Source: Candidatus Dojkabacteria bacterium
GTDB lineage: Bacteria > Patescibacteriota > Dojkabacteria > J137
DNA length: 64,000 nt
NCBI GenBank assembly: GCA_041750555.1
Contig: JBGSZB010000029.1
Span: 672 to 64,671 of the forward strand
Direction: 5' to 3'
The position numbers and the translations under genes were made by a program. The notes below the pieces were generated by a model that saw only the letters and a program-made list of their open reading frames with translations, was not told where the DNA came from and did not search any database. Every line of letters starts with the position of its first letter. Position 1 is the stretch's first letter. Positions 12,347 through 58,971 of the stretch are shown here, piece after piece.

Positions 12347-13866
12347 TGCAGTATCTAAAGGAGAAAATAAAATTAAATAAAGCTTTATATCTAGTTTTAC
12401 TTGTTGTGATTTCTCTCTCTTTAATCACTATTCTATTAAATAATCCAAAAAGTTTTGGTGATGGGAGCGAATACACTTTATTGCTTGAAAGCTTATACAA
12501 TCACCAAAGCCCTGAATTGAGATTAGAAGATATTAATAGCACATACACAAATGCACTTAAATACAATTATGACGTTAATCTTTTTACACAAGAGAATGCA
12601 TATAGTGGGTACTTTACATCTGGTGATGGTTTAAACTACTCCTATCATTTCTGGGGATATTCCTTAGTATCCTTGCCAGTTAGGGGCTTTTTAGAAGTTT
12701 TTAATTTAAATATATTTAATACTTTTGCAATAACAAACTTATTACTCTTTAGTATTACTTCGTTTTTAATTCCTTTACTCATAAAGAGAAATAAAATAAT
12801 ATCTTTTTTAATACTTACTCTTAATACATCAATTCTTTACATTAACCTTAATCATCCTGAGTTCTTTACCTATTCATTAGTATTACTCTCTTCTCTTCTT
12901 TTTTTAAGAAATAAATACTTTTTAGCAATATTATTAAGTTCTCTAGCATCTCTTCAAAACACACCTGTAATATTTTTAACGTTATTAATATTAATTTATT
13001 CAACATATATTTATTTTAAAGAAACAGGGTTTAGATTAGTTTTAATAAAAAGACTATTACCCATATTTTTAATTTCCCTAATATCAGTCATTCCCTTTAT
13101 TTTTTACTATATAAACTTTCAAACTTTTAATTTAATACAAAAGGTTGGAGGGTCCGATTTAAATTTAATTTCTTTAAAAAGAGTAATTGAACTGTTTTTT
13201 GACCCTAACTTAGGATTATTTTTTTATGTTCCACTATCTGTAATTGGTATAGTTACTTCAATTTATTATTTCATTAAAAAAAGATCTTTAAAGATACTAA
13301 TCTTAATCTTAAGTGTTGTATTAATGAGTATTCTTTCTACTTCAACAACTAACTGGAATCATGGAATGATAACCTCTTCTAGATACGCTATATGGGCAAT
13401 ACTACCAATAGGTAACTTGCTTCTTATTGAGATAGTAAATCGGGAAAACATAATAATAAATTTGAAAGATTTTATTAAATTAGAGGGGTTGAAAACTCTA
13501 TTTAAGTTTAAATACTTAATAACTATTGCAATCTATTTATTACTAATCTATCAATTATTAATAGTAGTAATAGCAGGAGGTTTAATTTCAAACGGAAGAT
13601 TGGGGGGAAGCGGATTAACTCCTTTCTCTCAAGTAATATTAAATTACTTTCCATCTCTCTACTCTCCTACACAGCAAATATTTGAAGGTAGAGTTTTATG
13701 TAATGAAAAATTGTGTGATTATCCAATAATATATAAATACAATAATGATTGTAAGAAGATATTATTAAAGAATACTAGTGATAATGTTTCTAAAGTTATT
13801 AATGAATGTGGAGAAAATTTTAATATAGATCACTGTGATTCTACTTTTTGTTATTATAGTTATTAA
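12346..13866 (+). CDS. Polytopic membrane protein, putative GT-C-fold glycosyltransferase, with a Cys-rich extracytoplasmic C-terminus
   Basis: 506 aa and at least 10 TM helices. An acidic first loop is present (FGDGSEYTLLLESL...ELRLEDINS). The C-terminal 60 aa contain 7 Cys (CNEKLCDYP...DCKK...ECGENFNIDHCDSTFC). Its start overlaps the UbiA stop (taATG). Confidence 0.4.
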   Translation: MQYLKEKIKLNKALYLVLLVVISLSLITILLNNPKSFGDGSEYTLLLESLYNHQSPELRLEDINSTYTNALKYNYDVNLFTQENAYSGYFTSGDGLNYSYHFWGYSLVSLPVRGFLEVFNLNIFNTFAITNLLLFSITSFLIPLLIKRNKIISFLILTLNTSILYINLNHPEFFTYSLVLLSSLLFLRNKYFLAILLSSLASLQNTPVIFLTLLILIYSTYIYFKETGFRLVLIKRLLPIFLISLISVIPFIFYYINFQTFNLIQKVGGSDLNLISLKRVIELFFDPNLGLFFYVPLSVIGIVTSIYYFIKKRSLKILILILSVVLMSILSTSTTNWNHGMITSSRYAIWAILPIGNLLLIEIVNRENIIINLKDFIKLEGLKTLFKFKYLITIAIYLLLIYQLLIVVIAGGLISNGRLGGSGLTPFSQVILNYFPSLYSPTQQIFEGRVLCNEKLCDYPIIYKYNNDCKKILLKNTSDNVSKVINECGENFNIDHCDSTFCYYSY

Positions 13867-13869
13867 GAT

Positions 13870-14847
13870 ATGGAGAAATTTAAAAAAACTGCAATTATAA
13901 TTGTAAGCTATAAAACACCTTGGTATTTAAACCAATGTTTAAAAAGTATATATAAACATACTTCTAACTTTCATATATATATTTCTCAAAATACTAAAGA
14001 CTTAGCTTCCATTAATGTTATTAACAAATATATTAGTAAATATCCAAATACCCTAACTTTAAAAATTAATGATAAAAATTTAGGATATGTTGGAGGAGTT
14101 AATAGTCTGTACACAGAAACTATACAACATGAGAGAATATGCTTTCTAAATAGTGATTGTATAGTAACCCCTAATTGGTTAACTGAAATGAATAAAGTTT
14201 TAGATTTAGATAATAATGTTGTACAAGTAGCTCCTGACTCTAATCAATTTTATACTGAAAAACTTTTTTGGAGATTAATTAGATGGCAAATTATGAAAAG
14301 ATTTCCAATATTAGGGGCTAGAATATATAAATATATGTTGTTTTTTAATCCACCTAGACATAGTGGTAATAAAGACTTTAGTGATACAGGCGATAAATTT
14401 TATCTATTCTGTGGTGGATTTTGTAATTTAATTAGAAGTAAATACTTTAAAGATTTAGGTTATTTATTAGATCCTAACATTGTTCATGGATATGGAGACG
14501 ATTTTGACCTAAGTTACTATTTAAGGCAATTTGGTAAGATTGGGGCTACATATCATAGTTATGTATTCCATTTTGTTAATGCTTCTTTAAACAAATTAAA
14601 TTCTAGAGAACAATTAAAACAAAAAGTGAGTCAATTAAATAGACTGTATATTGTTTCTAAATGGGAAAACAGATTAAAAGATGATATGAATAAAGTAAAT
14701 CAAGATGAACTACTCTCTCTCTCTAACTCTCAAGAAATTGATATTATTCTTAAATACTTTGGAATAATTAACATTGATCCTAAATTTAGAGAATATATTA
14801 AATCTATTCCTGCAAAAGAATACGAGAATCAATTATTAAATAATTAG
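13870..14847 (+). CDS. Glycosyltransferase family 2
   Basis: AIIIVSYKTPWYLNQCLKSI is a GT-A N-terminal motif. Acidic residues follow at the expected DxD position (NSDC). Confidence 0.6.
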   Translation: MEKFKKTAIIIVSYKTPWYLNQCLKSIYKHTSNFHIYISQNTKDLASINVINKYISKYPNTLTLKINDKNLGYVGGVNSLYTETIQHERICFLNSDCIVTPNWLTEMNKVLDLDNNVVQVAPDSNQFYTEKLFWRLIRWQIMKRFPILGARIYKYMLFFNPPRHSGNKDFSDTGDKFYLFCGGFCNLIRSKYFKDLGYLLDPNIVHGYGDDFDLSYYLRQFGKIGATYHSYVFHFVNASLNKLNSREQLKQKVSQLNRLYIVSKWENRLKDDMNKVNQDELLSLSNSQEIDIILKYFGIINIDPKFREYIKSIPAKEYENQLLNN

Positions 14848-14925
14848 CTTAAAGTTAATTTAAGTGTATATAATATCCCTAAGAAATAATATTTCTTAAA
14901 CGTCTTTTATTTATTATTTAATTAA

Positions 14926-16002
14926 ATGAAAATAATAATATTTGCTGGAGGTACAGGTAAAAGATTTTGGCCTGCTAGTAGAAAGAGTTCTCCTAAACAG
15001 TTTTTACCAATAATAAATAATAGTCCATTAATTAAAATTAAATACGAGTATTTAAGATTAGGCTTTAAACCCGAAGATATATTTGTAAGTACTGGAATTC
15101 AATACAAAAAAGAAGTAACTACAATTTTAAATGAATTACCAGAACAAAACTTTATATTTGAACCAGAGATGAGAGATACCGGTCCTGCAGTAACCCTTGC
15201 AATATCATATGTTTCAAAAAGATTTCCAACGGAAGTTATCTCAACTCAATGGTCAGATCATTTAATAAAAAAACCTAAAGTATTTATTAAAGCATTGAGG
15301 GAATCTGAAAAATATATTTTAAATAATAGGGCTAAATATATTTTAATTGGAGTTCCTGCTAGATTCCCCTCACCTCATAGGGGATATATTAAATTTGGTA
15401 ATGAAATAGAAAAGATTAATAAAGATATTAGTTTAAAAAAGTTTATAGCTTTTAAAGAAAAACCAGATTTAGAGTTAGCCAAAGTTTATATTAAATCTAA
15501 AAACTACGCTTGGAATCCAGGTTACTGGAGTATGAAGGGAGTTGATTATTTAAATATTGTAAAGAAGAGCTCTCCTGAAATTTACAATGTTTGCCAGGAA
15601 ATAGTTAATAGTGAATTTAATATTAATAGTTTAAATAAGTTTAAAACTTTAGAAAAGATAGCCGCTGATTATATCTTTGCAGAAAACTTAAAAGTTAAGG
15701 ATACCCTAGTTACTTTAAGTGATATGGGTTGGAGTGATGTTGGGGAATGGATAGCTTTTAAAGAAGCATTTGAAAGTAGTAATAATTCAAATGTAAGTAT
15801 TGGTAATAGCTTTGACTATGAATCACATGATACTCTAATTTATAATCAAGAAAATGAAAAGTTAATAGCCACAATTGGATTAAAAGGCTTTGTGGTTGTT
15901 AATACTAAAGATGTACTAGCAATATTTCACAAAGATGATAATACTAAAATTAAAGAGTTTTTAAATAAATTAGAGGAGAATGATTTAAGTAAATATCTAT
16001 AA
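14926..16002 (+). CDS. manC: Mannose-1-phosphate guanylyltransferase (GDP-mannose pyrophosphorylase), nucleotidyltransferase domain only
   Basis: MKIIIFAGGTGKRFWPASRKSSPKQFLPI matches the ManC/CpsB N-terminal signature (GGxGxRLWPxSR..PKQF). No phosphomannose isomerase domain is present. Confidence 0.8.
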   Translation: MKIIIFAGGTGKRFWPASRKSSPKQFLPIINNSPLIKIKYEYLRLGFKPEDIFVSTGIQYKKEVTTILNELPEQNFIFEPEMRDTGPAVTLAISYVSKRFPTEVISTQWSDHLIKKPKVFIKALRESEKYILNNRAKYILIGVPARFPSPHRGYIKFGNEIEKINKDISLKKFIAFKEKPDLELAKVYIKSKNYAWNPGYWSMKGVDYLNIVKKSSPEIYNVCQEIVNSEFNINSLNKFKTLEKIAADYIFAENLKVKDTLVTLSDMGWSDVGEWIAFKEAFESSNNSNVSIGNSFDYESHDTLIYNQENEKLIATIGLKGFVVVNTKDVLAIFHKDDNTKIKEFLNKLEENDLSKYL

Positions 16003-47596: not shown

Positions 47597-47929
47597 GTGA
47601 CACTGGATCTAAGTAATTCTCGAAACACCTCAGGATTTGACCTCATTGATTGTATGATGAATTCAGGAATACTCACACAAAGAGCGGCAAAAAGAATTCT
47701 AAGGGATACAATTACAGAGGAAATTGAAAAACTTACTACAAGATTAAATGAGGTCGATGAGAAACTTTTAACCTTAAGTGATAATCCTTACGCTCAAGAG
47801 CTTGAACAAGAAAAGCTTAGACTCCACCAATGGATAAGCGATCTAAATATCATGCTAAATTCCCAAAAGCATTCTGGGCTTAAGGTTAAGGTAGCTGATG
47901 TAAAATCCTCAAACGATTTAGAGTCCTAA
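47597..47929 (+). CDS. Hypothetical small coiled-coil protein
   Basis: 110-aa ORF with no motif recognised. Confidence 0.3.
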   Translation: MTLDLSNSRNTSGFDLIDCMMNSGILTQRAAKRILRDTITEEIEKLTTRLNEVDEKLLTLSDNPYAQELEQEKLRLHQWISDLNIMLNSQKHSGLKVKVADVKSSNDLES

Positions 47930-48654
47930 CCCTTAACCTCTCTAACTACTAACATAGGTGTAATAGCACCATCATCTTCTTGACCTTGAGGATTACCTTT
48001 AACAATAGACATAAATTCATCTTTTTTAAACTTTTCTTTAACACTCTGACTCATACCTAAAACATTGTTATCAATATTGTTTCCATCAAGAATAACAGTT
48101 GGATATTGAAACTTAGACTCTAATTCATTACATATCTCATCACCATTTTTTGGTGGAAGTACAGCATACTCATTCATAGGTGGTTTAGAAACTGGATTAA
48201 AACCATCAATAGCATTAATATTGTTACCTGCAATAATATAAAAATAGCCAGGTTTTTTAAAAAGCTTCATAACAACACCTCCAACTAATGCAACAATAGT
48301 TCTTGGATATCCTATTTGATTAATAGCAGCTTGCATTTTTCTAGGATGAGAATAACCAATATCTCCTGGCCACTTTTTAACAAACTTAACAATGAGTCTT
48401 GCTAAAAGTGATATCTTAACTTCAGACTCATGTAAAACAAGAGCTTTTGCAATACTCACAACTTTTGCTGAAATACATAAGATATCTCCTTTTTTTAAAT
48501 AAGGGATAGCGTAAGTTTTAACAAACTCATCTAAACTATCTCCAATCTTTAATGTAGTTGTTTGGAGTGGATATCTTGCATACTTAACACCATTAAGCTC
48601 AGAGAATAGATCTCTACCTTTATTAGGAGACATTTTTAAACCGTAATTAGCCAT
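47926..48654 (-). CDS. CofE-like (F420-0:gamma-glutamyl ligase family) protein
   Basis: GDILCISAKVVSIAKA (compare CofE GDvlvvssKivSKaEG), a Gly-rich IVALVGGVV, and the C-terminal DDGAITPMLVVREV (compare GGDGIPAVVVRG). Confidence 0.55.
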   Translation of the reverse strand: MANYGLKMSPNKGRDLFSELNGVKYARYPLQTTTLKIGDSLDEFVKTYAIPYLKKGDILCISAKVVSIAKALVLHESEVKISLLARLIVKFVKKWPGDIGYSHPRKMQAAINQIGYPRTIVALVGGVVMKLFKKPGYFYIIAGNNINAIDGFNPVSKPPMNEYAVLPPKNGDEICNELESKFQYPTVILDGNNIDNNVLGMSQSVKEKFKKDEFMSIVKGNPQGQEDDGAITPMLVVREVKG

Positions 48655-55821: not shown

Positions 55822-56235
55822 TTAAGCTTCGGGAGATAGATCTGCACACAATTCACTAGAAGCATTAAATCTTCTTTTCAATACTATATGTCTAATACCA
55901 GAAAGACTATCTCCATTACTATTGAATTTCGCCTTTATCGATTTTATAAAATCAGCATAGGAATTAAACCCAAGTTTACAAAGATTACTCTCGTTTACTA
56001 CAACCTTCCAGCCATGGTAATACAGCGTATCAACAAATAAAATATCAGTTTCAAGAGTTATTCTGAAAGTTAAAATCTCACCATTTAATACAAGAGTAAG
56101 AAAAGTTTTACCTTTGTAGCTCCATAACTCATATTCGGGTTTAATCTCCTCTGCAAAGTTAACTTGATGATCGAATATCTCAAGACGTAACTTTGGATTT
56201 TGAAGATCCCAGGTTAATTCTAAAATTTTTTTCAT
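55822..56235 (-). CDS. Hypothetical protein, paralog of the adjacent 56241..56699 ORF
   Basis: Collinear similarity to the neighbour: LRLEIFDHQVNFAEEIKPEYELWSYKGKTFLTLVLNGEILTFRITLET and LGFNSYADFIKSIK. Confidence 0.45.
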   Translation of the reverse strand: MKKILELTWDLQNPKLRLEIFDHQVNFAEEIKPEYELWSYKGKTFLTLVLNGEILTFRITLETDILFVDTLYYHGWKVVVNESNLCKLGFNSYADFIKSIKAKFNSNGDSLSGIRHIVLKRRFNASSELCADLSPEA

Positions 56236-56240
56236 TTTAA

Positions 56241-56699
56241 TTAAGCCTCTGTTTGTATTTCAACCTTTTGTAAAAGATTTGGAGATACAGTATATTCTCC
56301 CCCGTAAGTTTTATACATTCTTAAGTTTCTTATTTTTGTAAAATCTATCTCCCCTTTATTGCCATCAGTCAATATTTTTCTAATGCTTAAAAGAAATTCA
56401 CTCTCCGAACTAAAACCTATTGTCCTCAAACTAACTGAATCAAGGATTGCTTTTTGTGCATCATAATACATTTCACCTACTGAAAAAGTATCTAGGTCAA
56501 CCCCCTTTCTACTGCTTTCTACCCATATTCTTAAAGTAAAAGGCCTACCATTTAGCTTAATACTTAAATATGACTCTCCCCCCCTTTCCCAAAATGAATA
56601 TTCAAGGCTATTGGAATCGAGCGAATTTTCATGATATCCAATCTGTAATCTGAAGTTTGTATCCTGTCTCTCATATGGTTTTTGTATATGTATATCCAT
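56241..56699 (-). CDS. Hypothetical protein, paralog of the adjacent 55822..56235 ORF
   Basis: FRLQIGYHENSLDSNSLEYSFWERGGESYLSIKLNGRPFTLRIWVES and IGFSSESEFLLSIRKIL. Confidence 0.45.
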   Translation of the reverse strand: MDIHIQKPYERQDTNFRLQIGYHENSLDSNSLEYSFWERGGESYLSIKLNGRPFTLRIWVESSRKGVDLDTFSVGEMYYDAQKAILDSVSLRTIGFSSESEFLLSIRKILTDGNKGEIDFTKIRNLRMYKTYGGEYTVSPNLLQKVEIQTEA

Positions 56700-57843: not shown

Positions 57844-58971
57844 TCATTTATTAACCACGTTATACACCCTTATCTCCCTTGCTGTTTCACTTAAAACATT
57901 AAGTTCTATATGAAGATAATTTAAATTATTAAAAAACTCTTCATCTAAATTAAAAATTATACTAGCCCATTCAATAACTACTATATTATCTTTATTAAAC
58001 CAGTTATAGAAACCTAGTAATTTTAAATCCTCAATACTTTGAATCTTCCAACCATCAAAGTGTATTAATTTAATCTCTTTATTATTTAATGTACCCATAT
58101 ATTCATTAAAGTAATTATATGTAGGGGATTTAATAATTCTCTCAATATTTAAAGATTTAGCAACTCCTTTTGTAAAATGGGTTTTACCTGCACCTAATTC
58201 ACCATCTAGCAATATTAATTTAACATTATTATATGAATTATCTGTTTCCTCTTTGGCTTTACTAACTTTTAATATTTTTGAAGCTATATCTATAGTATCC
58301 GTAACACTATTAGAAATATATTTATTAACACTTTTAACATTTCTAGGATTAATTAACCCTTTCCTATATACAACTAAATCATCTCTTGATGAATCAATTA
58401 CAGTTGAAGGTGGATTTTTTGGTAATTCTCCTGCATCTATTACTAAATCTATTAACTCTTTATTCTTTTCTGGTAAGTGTTTAAAGATATCTTCTATTGT
58501 ATATGGAGTTGGTTTAGAACTTAAATTAGCAGAAGTAGAGGTAATAGGGAAACCAAACTCTGATATTAAATCTAATAATATACTATAGTTAGGTATTCTA
58601 ATTCCCAGAGTTCCTGCTTCACTTTCCAGTCTCTTATCAACCTTCCCCTTTGATTTAGAAACTACAGTTACAGGACCCGGCATAAATGTATCGTATATTT
58701 TTTTAGCACTTTCATTAATCTCTACATATTCACTTGCCATATGAATACTATCTACAGCAATAGATATCGCTTTACCTTCAGGGCGCTTTTTATATTCTAA
58801 TAGTTTAGTTACTGCATTTGAATTTCTAGCATCAACCCCAACACCATAACAAGTTTCTGTAGGGAATATTATTAATCCACCACTCTTTAATGTATTAACA
58901 GCTTCATTAATTAAATCACTAGTATAATTAGTATCACTTAAATTAACACTGTTAAGTTTTATTATTTTCAT
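57844..58971 (-). CDS. Fusion of L-threonylcarbamoyladenylate synthase (TsaC/YrdC) and the t6A ATPase TsaE (YjeE)
   Basis: The N-terminal half carries GGLIIFPTETCYGVGVDA, PGPVTVV and TSTSANLSSKP, the YrdC motifs. The C-terminal half carries LDGELGAGKTHFTKGVAKSL (the TsaE P-loop), SPTYNYFNEY and HFDGWKIQ. Confidence 0.85.
   Translation of the reverse strand: MKIIKLNSVNLSDTNYTSDLINEAVNTLKSGGLIIFPTETCYGVGVDARNSNAVTKLLEYKKRPEGKAISIAVDSIHMASEYVEINESAKKIYDTFMPGPVTVVSKSKGKVDKRLESEAGTLGIRIPNYSILLDLISEFGFPITSTSANLSSKPTPYTIEDIFKHLPEKNKELIDLVIDAGELPKNPPSTVIDSSRDDLVVYRKGLINPRNVKSVNKYISNSVTDTIDIASKILKVSKAKEETDNSYNNVKLILLDGELGAGKTHFTKGVAKSLNIERIIKSPTYNYFNEYMGTLNNKEIKLIHFDGWKIQSIEDLKLLGFYNWFNKDNIVVIEWASIIFNLDEEFFNNLNYLHIELNVLSETAREIRVYNVVNK

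Follow-up and report, generated by a model that had tools for sequence, protein, structure and literature searches.

We report that TsaC (YrdC) and TsaE (YjeE), two proteins of the pathway for threonylcarbamoyladenosine (t6A), are encoded by a single gene and covalently tethered in one polypeptide in the window analysed here, a stretch of 64,000 nucleotides of contig JBGSZB010000029.1 from a Candidatus Dojkabacteria bacterium. The t6A modification at position 37 of tRNA is universal, and it is essential in most bacteria. We suggest that the fusion protein is a bifunctional subunit of this pathway that would bring the synthesis of threonylcarbamoyl-AMP (TC-AMP) to TsaD through docking of the TsaE half, and we put the probability of this reading at about 0.7. 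The initial annotation of the stretch had proposed a YrdC domain and a TsaE domain in one polypeptide. This is confirmed by one open reading frame (ORF) in which both halves score above the Pfam and NCBIfam cut-offs. Its further proposal, a physical tether between the TC-AMP synthase and the transfer-complex regulator, is supported by the profile matches, the fold and the conservation of the family.

The gene is a single uninterrupted ORF of 375 amino acids on the minus strand, with an ATG start and a stop codon at positions 57844-57846. Its product is identical to the database protein P0001, which is encoded on a 72,133-bp contig at NCBI. The G+C content of the window is 26-34%, and its long ORFs are read under the standard bacterial code. 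The five motifs quoted in the initial annotation were all located, namely PTETCYGVG (residues 37-45), PGPVTVV (98-104), SANLS (147-151), GELGAGKTHF (257-266) and SPTYNYF (282-288). The features of the gene are as follows.

57844..58971, minus strand: tsaC-tsaE fusion gene, complete; one ORF with both Pfam domains in one polypeptide
58363..58971, minus strand: TsaC/YrdC domain, residues 1-203, a short TsaC1-like form without SUA5 (PF01300, TIGR00057, Foldseek)
58783..58791, minus strand: K61-K62-R63, the KxR half of the KRSN tetrad (criterion of PMC4615747)
58525..58533, minus strand: S147-A148-N149, the SxN half of the KRSN tetrad (family conservation)
58339..58362, minus strand: inter-domain linker GLINPRNV, residues 204-211, between the AlphaFold2 strands 200-203 and 212-220
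57847..58338, minus strand: TsaE/YjeE domain, residues 212-375, P-loop ATPase family (PF02367, TIGR00150, phmmer, Foldseek)
58180..58203, minus strand: Walker A motif GELGAGKT, residues 257-264, aligned to GDLGAGKT of HI0065 and YdiB
58117..58128, minus strand: SPT(F/Y) loop, S282-P283-T284-Y285, aligned to KSPTYT of HI0065
58048..58062, minus strand: switch II, H304-F-D306-G-W308, aligned to HFDLYR of HI0065 and HMDVYR of YdiB
57967..57972, minus strand: E334-W335, corresponding to Glu108/Trp109 of TsaE, aligned to IEW of HI0065 and VEW of YdiB

The N-terminal half matches the Pfam family PF01300 (Sua5_yciO_yrdC) over residues 27-205 with an E-value of 3.4e-47 and 160.7 bits (cut-off 25.1), and it scores 184.4 bits (cut-off 123.2) against TIGR00057, the NCBIfam equivalog model for L-threonylcarbamoyladenylate synthase. 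Foldseek aligns it with E. coli YrdC (1hru) and with 1k7j at target-normalised template modelling (TM) scores of 0.83-0.84 and a root-mean-square deviation (rmsd) of 2.0-2.8 Å. The YrdC superfamily includes a paralogue, YciO, which is not isofunctional with TsaC and is without the KRSN tetrad (PMC4615747). Since K61, R63, S147 and N149 are all present in the window protein, its N-terminal half is assigned to TsaC and not to YciO. Residue conservation was counted over 273 distinct sequences of the family. K61 is kept in 270 of these, R63 in 204, S147 in 258 and N149 in 260, and T40 and R125 are invariant (273/273). The N-terminal half is thus predicted to make TC-AMP from threonine, bicarbonate and ATP. 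With no match to the SUA5 domain (PF03481) at E ≤ 0.01 in Pfam and with TsaE in the C-terminal half, the protein is judged not to be a TsaC2/Sua5. It is likewise judged not to be of the TobZ/HypF type, as the Kae1/TsaD-like domain (PF00814) was not found in the chain by Pfam; the match of the YrdC half to the hypF model TIGR00143 is weak (38 bits, cut-off 466) and covers the YrdC part alone.

A match of the C-terminal half to TsaE profiles had been named as a check on the proposal, and the half passes two of them: PF02367 over residues 223-366 (E-value 5.6e-26, 91.4 bits, cut-off 26.6) and the NCBIfam equivalog TIGR00150 (T6A_YjeE; 76.8 bits, cut-off 60.1). Its score against NF007931, the E. 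coli-type TsaE model, is below the cut-off (53 versus 246), as expected for a distant lineage. Among PDB sequences, phmmer finds the TsaE proteins of H. influenzae (HI0065, 1htw, 8e-14), B. subtilis (5np9) and T. maritima (6n9a_E), and the target-normalised TM scores from Foldseek are 0.78 to 5np9, 0.74 to 1htw_A and 0.73 to 6n9a_E.

The elements of TsaE that contact ATP or TsaD (the Walker A Thr, SPT(F/Y), HxD and Glu-Trp) are all kept, except that the Tyr of switch II is mostly Trp. In the Walker A motif, each of G260, G262, K263 and T264 is kept by 269 of the 273 members, T264 corresponding to Thr42 of T. maritima TsaE, which binds Mg (PMC6009658). In the solved TsaBDE complex, the SPT(F/Y) loop of TsaE reaches into TsaD's active site and contacts the gamma-phosphate of ATP (PMC6009658). 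The corresponding loop of the window protein, SPTYN (residues 282-286), agrees with SPT(F/Y)T at the first four positions and lacks the Thr at the fifth, and KSPTYNY of the fusion aligns with KSPTYTL of a solved TsaE chain. Conservation in this loop is high, with S282 in 271/273, P283 in 268/273, T or S at position 284 in 270/273 and Y or F at position 285 in 270/273. Glu108 of TsaE is a Mg ligand and Trp109 belongs to switch I (PMC6009658). Their counterparts E334 and W335 are kept in 270 and 269 members, and IEWAS of the fusion aligns with IEWSE. Switch II reads HFDGWK in the window protein instead of the canonical HxDxYR, so that Trp stands in place of Tyr. H304 and D306 are present in 270 and 271 members; at position 308, 212 members have W, 51 have Y and 7 have F. 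In the solved complex, TsaE Tyr82 stacks on Lys166 of TsaD, and the Y82A mutation of E. coli TsaE lowers the affinity for ATP-gamma-S about 7-fold (PMC6009658). We regard the replacement of Tyr by Trp as a conservative aromatic change. Across the family, the catalytic residues are under selection in both halves.

An AlphaFold2 model of the window protein, built on a 50-sequence alignment of the family, has a mean predicted local distance difference test (pLDDT) score of 93.2 and a predicted TM score (pTM) of 0.88. In this model, the TsaC half ends with a strand at residues 200-203 and the TsaE half opens with one at 212-220, which leaves a linker of about 8 residues with a pLDDT of about 87. 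Most of the 273 members keep a spacing of 12-20 residues from G205 to S222, a narrow range, and no conserved internal Met that would allow separate translation of TsaE was found in these 273 sequences. The best whole-chain Foldseek matches are two-domain Sua5/TsaC2 structures, with poor superposition (rmsd 10-12 Å). TsaN (8ide_A) is also among the Foldseek matches, none of which is a solved structure with both a TsaC and a TsaE half.

The architecture is not peculiar to this contig. A search for other YrdC+YjeE fusions, as suggested in the initial annotation, showed that the fusion recurs in hundreds of independent assemblies. The collection searched holds 5.8 billion proteins, clustered at 90% identity and with 1.84 billion representatives at 50% identity. 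The best 120 clusters at 90% identity all have PF01300 together with PF02367. When the 50%-identity representatives were searched exhaustively with HMMER, 290 matches fell below 1e-30; of the best 150, more than 100 align over the TsaC and the TsaE domain in a single stretch, at identities as low as 33%. The assemblies that carry the fused ORF come from NCBI, JGI, ENA and Logan. Among 50 loci (about 1 Mb), 49 have one intact fused ORF, and neither adjacent separate tsaC and tsaE genes nor a standalone tsaE ORF was found.

These data bear on the possibility that adjacent tsaC and tsaE genes were wrongly joined by assembly, gene calling or a frameshift. Local frameshifts do occur in the family. 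One locus (L052, 9929-10983) has a frameshift inside the TsaC half and another, an ENA copy (L092, 8916-10014), has a split N-terminus; these disruptions are probably sequencing errors or pseudogenes, and the TsaC-TsaE junction is intact in both. Short matches to TsaC only or TsaE only were also considered as an unfused ancestral state. The two that were looked at (P0207 and P0262) are fragments on contigs of less than 1 kb and were rejected as such. Because independent assemblies from four data sources show this uninterrupted ORF with its two domains, a frameshift artefact in the window is very unlikely. No locus has separate neighbouring tsaC and tsaE, and the linker is in frame and conserved in length. 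We consider an artefact to be extremely improbable and, as far as comparison of sequences can decide, effectively refuted.

All organism names on the closest matches are Candidatus Dojkabacteria (WS6). More distant members come from other lineages: one locus (L009) belongs to a metagenome-assembled genome of Candidatus Kerfeldbacteria (protein MBI2410897.1), the TsaD of another (L021) is identical to the Candidatus Magasanikbacteria protein OGH66243.1, and that of a third (L025) has an identical counterpart in Candidatus Beckwithbacteria. In the NCBI taxonomy, Kerfeldbacteria and Magasanikbacteria are placed in the Parcubacteria group and Beckwithbacteria in the Microgenomates group, all within Patescibacteria. 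The G+C content of the fusion loci ranges from 29% to 53%. By these assignments the fusion is conserved across the candidate phyla radiation (CPR)/Patescibacteria, in Dojkabacteria/WS6, Beckwithbacteria, Kerfeldbacteria and Magasanikbacteria. On one 197-kb contig (L010; GCA_029260735.1, JAJDCR010000093.1), the fusion-tsaD pair lies beside bacterial microcompartment shell proteins, an aldehyde dehydrogenase and TrkH. The contig also encodes a SpoIIE phosphatase and an arginyl-tRNA-protein transferase (ATE), a gene content that is atypical for CPR. The fusion may extend beyond CPR, or this contig may be mis-binned.

In most relatives, the fusion is followed by tsaD. In two loci (L007 and L008), the TsaD gene starts at +5 and -4 bp after the fusion, and its product scores 367 and 351 bits against TIGR03723 (cut-off 296). 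A scan of metagenomes with the family profile yielded about 40 more fusion loci. We counted as informative those loci that were retrieved via the fusion and have readable downstream sequence, with the duplicate pair L002/L003 counted once (n=37). In 29 of the 37, tsaD lies within 800 bp downstream of the fusion: its start is within 60 bp in 21 loci (-14 to +27 bp from the stop of the fusion) and 61-800 bp away in 8. It is about 2 kb off in 1 locus and not in the visible flank in 7. Four more loci, reached via TsaD, have the same order with overlaps of up to 14 nt, and two of these are WS6/Dojkabacteria contigs. The WS6/Dojkabacteria contigs in which tsaD adjoins the fusion are L004, L091 and L092. 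The fusion is thus usually coupled to tsaD in an operon-type and often overlapping arrangement, in which both genes are probably transcribed together and linked in translation.

The partner TsaD has an invariant HMEGH metal site, GGGV and GDNAAM. Its profile scores 324-344 bits to TsaD proteins that depend on TsaB (E. coli 4ydu and T. maritima 6n9a_D) versus 189 bits to the homodimeric Qri7. The initial annotation had raised the possibility that TsaD is absent or altered in this lineage; the data do not support this, as a canonical TsaD (351-367 bits, intact motifs) is encoded directly downstream of the fusion in most relatives.

Based on these features, we propose the following cycle. The TsaC domain would make the unstable TC-AMP, and the TsaE half would dock on TsaD in order to reset the enzyme, by which the TsaC half would be held beside the active site of TsaD. 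TC-AMP could then be loaded locally during the reset, by proximity hand-over or channelling. Hydrolysis of ATP by TsaE would free the fusion, after which tRNA would bind and receive the threonylcarbamoyl group. The fusion would also fix a 1:1 stoichiometry of TsaC and TsaE in very small genomes. The cycle builds on what has been reported for the separate proteins. TsaE binds TsaBD in an ATP-dependent manner, resets TsaD between turnovers and must have its role in a different step from the transfer; it competes with tRNA for a shared site on TsaD, and ATP is sandwiched between TsaE and TsaD (PMC6009658). TC-AMP has a half-life of 9.4 min when free versus 160 min when bound to TsaC, and it has been called a major open question whether TsaC delivers TC-AMP to TsaBD (PMC7913687).

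Several points weigh against this role for the fusion. TC-AMP reaches TsaBD or Qri7 in vitro by free diffusion, with no protein contact (PMC7913687), and we infer its direct hand-over here from the tethering alone. Since TsaE, when bound to TsaBD, keeps TsaD open, partly melted and inactive (PMC6009658), the loading of TC-AMP while TsaE is docked is not obvious. The fixed domain orientation predicted for the window protein is not predicted for a relative with 44% identity, P0119 (pTM 0.68, linker pLDDT about 70), and the rigid two-domain body suggested by the pTM of 0.88 was dropped because of this divergent member. In the 64-kb window itself, tsaD was not found by a motif search or by tblastn with the TsaD of the lineage. 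The search for tsaD advised in the initial annotation therefore succeeded next to the fusion in most relatives and gave nothing in the window, whose sub-lineage appears to have lost the adjacency, with tsaD placed elsewhere in the genome. The last point concerns TsaB. In the bacteria that have been characterised, TsaE docks where TsaB meets TsaD (PMC6009658), so that TsaB makes up half of the docking site. Neither the window nor some 1.03 Mb of loci, with about 10 kb visible on each side of each locus, gave a TsaB by the motif GPGxFTGxR, by phmmer and tblastn with an E. coli TsaB probe (used only as a lead) or by a hidden Markov model of the N-terminal half of the lineage TsaD. Candidates were rejected because they proved to be a peptide deformylase (L004, 1076-1666) or a glycosyl-hydrolase-like protein (L079, 947-1552), had only a sub-threshold RimI-like match (L091, 13527-14234) or, in the case of a 226-aa ORF directly after the fusion (L001, 11114-11794), had no family match. 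Almost all bacteria have TsaB, and two Mycoplasma species alone are without both TsaB and TsaE (PMC4615747). For this reason we expect, as a prior, that TsaB is encoded elsewhere in the genomes that carry the fusion.

The diffusion of TC-AMP in vitro, and a domain orientation that is not robustly predicted across the family, would both fit the main rival explanation, in which the genes were merged in streamlined genomes for co-expression and 1:1 dosage only, each half works as its separate counterpart does elsewhere, TC-AMP diffuses and the tether has no kinetic role. There are precedents in t6A fusions without an obvious channelling logic, such as alr::yjeE and yeaZ::rimI::ygjD (PMC3571937) and TsaC/HemK (PMC4615747), and in TsaN, which joins TsaD and TsaC without a channel (PMC10484737). 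We nevertheless hold that dosage as the sole reason is rather unlikely, because the fusion is kept over very divergent CPR lineages, to 33% identity, with a short and constrained linker, and because the tight, often overlapping coupling to tsaD points to selection on physical assembly. A different and less likely possibility is that the TsaE-like half was co-opted as a SUA5-like accessory domain of TsaC and gave up its role as the ATPase that docks on TsaD, with TsaD acting alone or as a homodimer in the manner of Qri7, without TsaB and without a working TsaE cycle. The TsaE domain does occupy the exact place of SUA5 in TsaC2, the best whole-chain structural matches are Sua5/TsaC2, the model of the window protein is compact with its two domains together, the loci (about 1 Mb) yielded no TsaB, and the switch II residue that stacks on TsaD is mostly changed from Tyr to Trp. 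However, the functional motifs of TsaE are kept and its equivalog model is passed, the superposition on Sua5 is poor, Trp is conservative for Tyr with 51 members keeping Tyr, and the partner TsaD is nearer to the TsaB-dependent enzymes than to Qri7; the search for TsaB covered 10 kb around the loci. Such a co-option seems very improbable to us. A further scheme, speculative and in our view distinctly unlikely, is that tsaCE and tsaD form a two-gene module without TsaB, in which the TsaE half would dock TsaC on a TsaD homodimer and TC-AMP would be channelled under the control of ATP. We therefore favor the bifunctional subunit that docks on TsaD through its TsaE half.

The fusion can be compared with several known systems. 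It shares the domain families, folds, catalytic motifs and TsaD partner with the separate TsaC (YrdC) and TsaE (YjeE) of E. coli, B. subtilis and T. maritima. There, however, TsaC is a free protein that published work has not found to associate stably with TsaBDE (PMC3571937, PMC7913687), and switch II has the Tyr that is mostly Trp in the fusion family. TsaC2/Sua5 is likewise a two-domain TC-AMP synthase with an alpha/beta domain C-terminal to YrdC, but it has SUA5 and a long gating hinge where the fusion has the TsaE P-loop ATPase and the short linker. The Kae1-Bud32 fusion of Archaea (MJ1130, HVO_1895), which is found in 25/53 archaea (PMC4615747), is likewise a natural t6A fusion and joins a catalytic subunit to an ATPase regulator. 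In that case the transferase is joined to the kinase-fold ATPase Bud32 and the first enzyme of the pathway is not involved, whereas here the TC-AMP synthase is joined to the P-loop protein TsaE. TobZ and HypF also tether a YrdC domain that forms an adenylate to the transfer machinery, and in both an internal channel carries the carbamoyl-adenylate (PMC10484737, PMC9654439). They carry synthase and transferase in one chain, whereas here the synthase is joined to the ATPase partner of the transferase, so that any hand-over would be between subunits and gated by ATP-dependent docking.

TsaN of Pandoraviruses (TsaD-TsaC-SUA5-TcdA) likewise includes a TsaC domain in a multi-domain t6A fusion. In contrast to the cellular fusion described here, it is viral, is without TsaE and a channel, and acts on nucleotides rather than tRNA (PMC10484737). 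Other t6A fusions, namely alr::yjeE, yeaZ::rimI::ygjD, hydrolase::yeaZ and TsaC/HemK, have been used as Rosetta stones to infer membership of complexes (PMC3571937, PMC4615747), but none couples TsaC to a subunit of TsaBDE, and they occur in Gram-positives, Dehalococcoides and Mycoplasma, not in CPR. Searches of the full-text literature found no description of the TsaC-TsaE architecture. Reviews and structure papers on t6A are silent on it, and the only literal "TsaE-TsaC" in the literature is the order of genes in an engineered cassette. In public databases, the fusion proteins are named only "L-threonylcarbamoyladenylate synthase", so that domain databases can show the architecture although we found no interpretation of it. 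The enzymes are ordinary; their covalent coupling, the breadth of the fusion in CPR and its linkage to tsaD are undescribed as far as we could search.

The gene neighbourhood offers further observations. In the window, the fusion is next to the genes for tryptophanyl-tRNA synthetase and trigger factor, followed by a glycosyltransferase, RecF and RecA, and this gene order is shared by a 1.14-Mb genome (L001). Two tandem ORFs of 137 and 152 aa (55822-56235 and 56241-56699, both on the minus strand) lie between trigger factor and the tryptophanyl-tRNA synthetase. They are paralogous (29% identity, E-value 3e-14) and have no significant Pfam match. A 242-aa ORF (47926-48654, minus strand) matches F420-0:gamma-glutamyl ligase (PF01996) with 29.3 bits (cut-off 25), which is unexpected in a CPR-type genome. 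The whole 64 kb has no tRNA gene by ARAGORN and no Rfam family at the gathering threshold.

In some relatives, the fusion and tsaD are separated by 260-620 bp. We considered that these gaps might hide a small TsaB or a tRNA and rejected this idea, as six of them hold a gene of the HIT family on the opposite strand (L022, 11001-11369, minus strand; L025; L028; L032; L042, 7968-8399, minus strand; L044, 4339-4740, minus strand). The ORFs of L022, L042 and L044 match PF01230 with E-values of 8e-21 to 4e-15. In the gap of L034 no ORF or tRNA was found, and that of L050 contains nothing but two ORFs without annotation, of 128 and 72 aa. Acyl- and aminoacyl-adenylates are substrates that HIT/Hint enzymes hydrolyse. 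As TC-AMP belongs to the acyl-adenylates, it is conceivable that the HIT protein would act as a scavenger of stray TC-AMP. In two loci, genes for tRNA-Arg(CCU) and tRNA-Pro(CGG) directly follow tsaD (L022, 12460-13062, minus strand; L025, 4499-4975, plus strand). tRNA-Arg(CCU) decodes AGG and is a member of the ANN-decoding class that receives t6A. A 462-kb contig (L006) encodes a second tRNA-modification enzyme about 2.6 kb from the fusion, a bacterial homologue of Elongator protein 3 (13721-15499, plus strand; Radical_SAM and Radical_SAM_C, named "elongator complex protein 3" by JGI). Other loci have TsaC only (L057, L058, L059, L062, L066, L074, L080-L082 and L088), with 32-39% identity to the TsaC half of the window protein. 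In these, tsaC often adjoins a gene of the Kae1/TsaD type that is 27-32% identical to the CPR TsaD, and thus adjacency of synthase and transferase without fusion to TsaE exists in other lineages too.

The fusion has consequences for the understanding of t6A synthesis in these bacteria. Because its products are labelled as TC-AMP synthase only, TsaE would be scored as missing in the genomes that carry it. The fusion also raises the question of whether TsaB is dispensable in these CPR lineages. If the two-gene module were true, bacteria would have a natural t6A system in which both steps are obligately and physically coupled, the first of its kind, and this streamlined system would stand between the bacterial pathway of four proteins and the minimal pathway of mitochondria. 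More generally, the fusion bears on the unresolved question of hand-over versus diffusion of TC-AMP and on the timing of loading relative to the ATPase reset by TsaE, and it offers a ready-made natural construct for channelling kinetics and structure. It is also a candidate marker of CPR lineages. The fusion of TsaC to the subunit that docks on TsaD, in a gene that is usually coupled to tsaD, is Rosetta-stone evidence that TsaC, TsaE and TsaD assemble physically.

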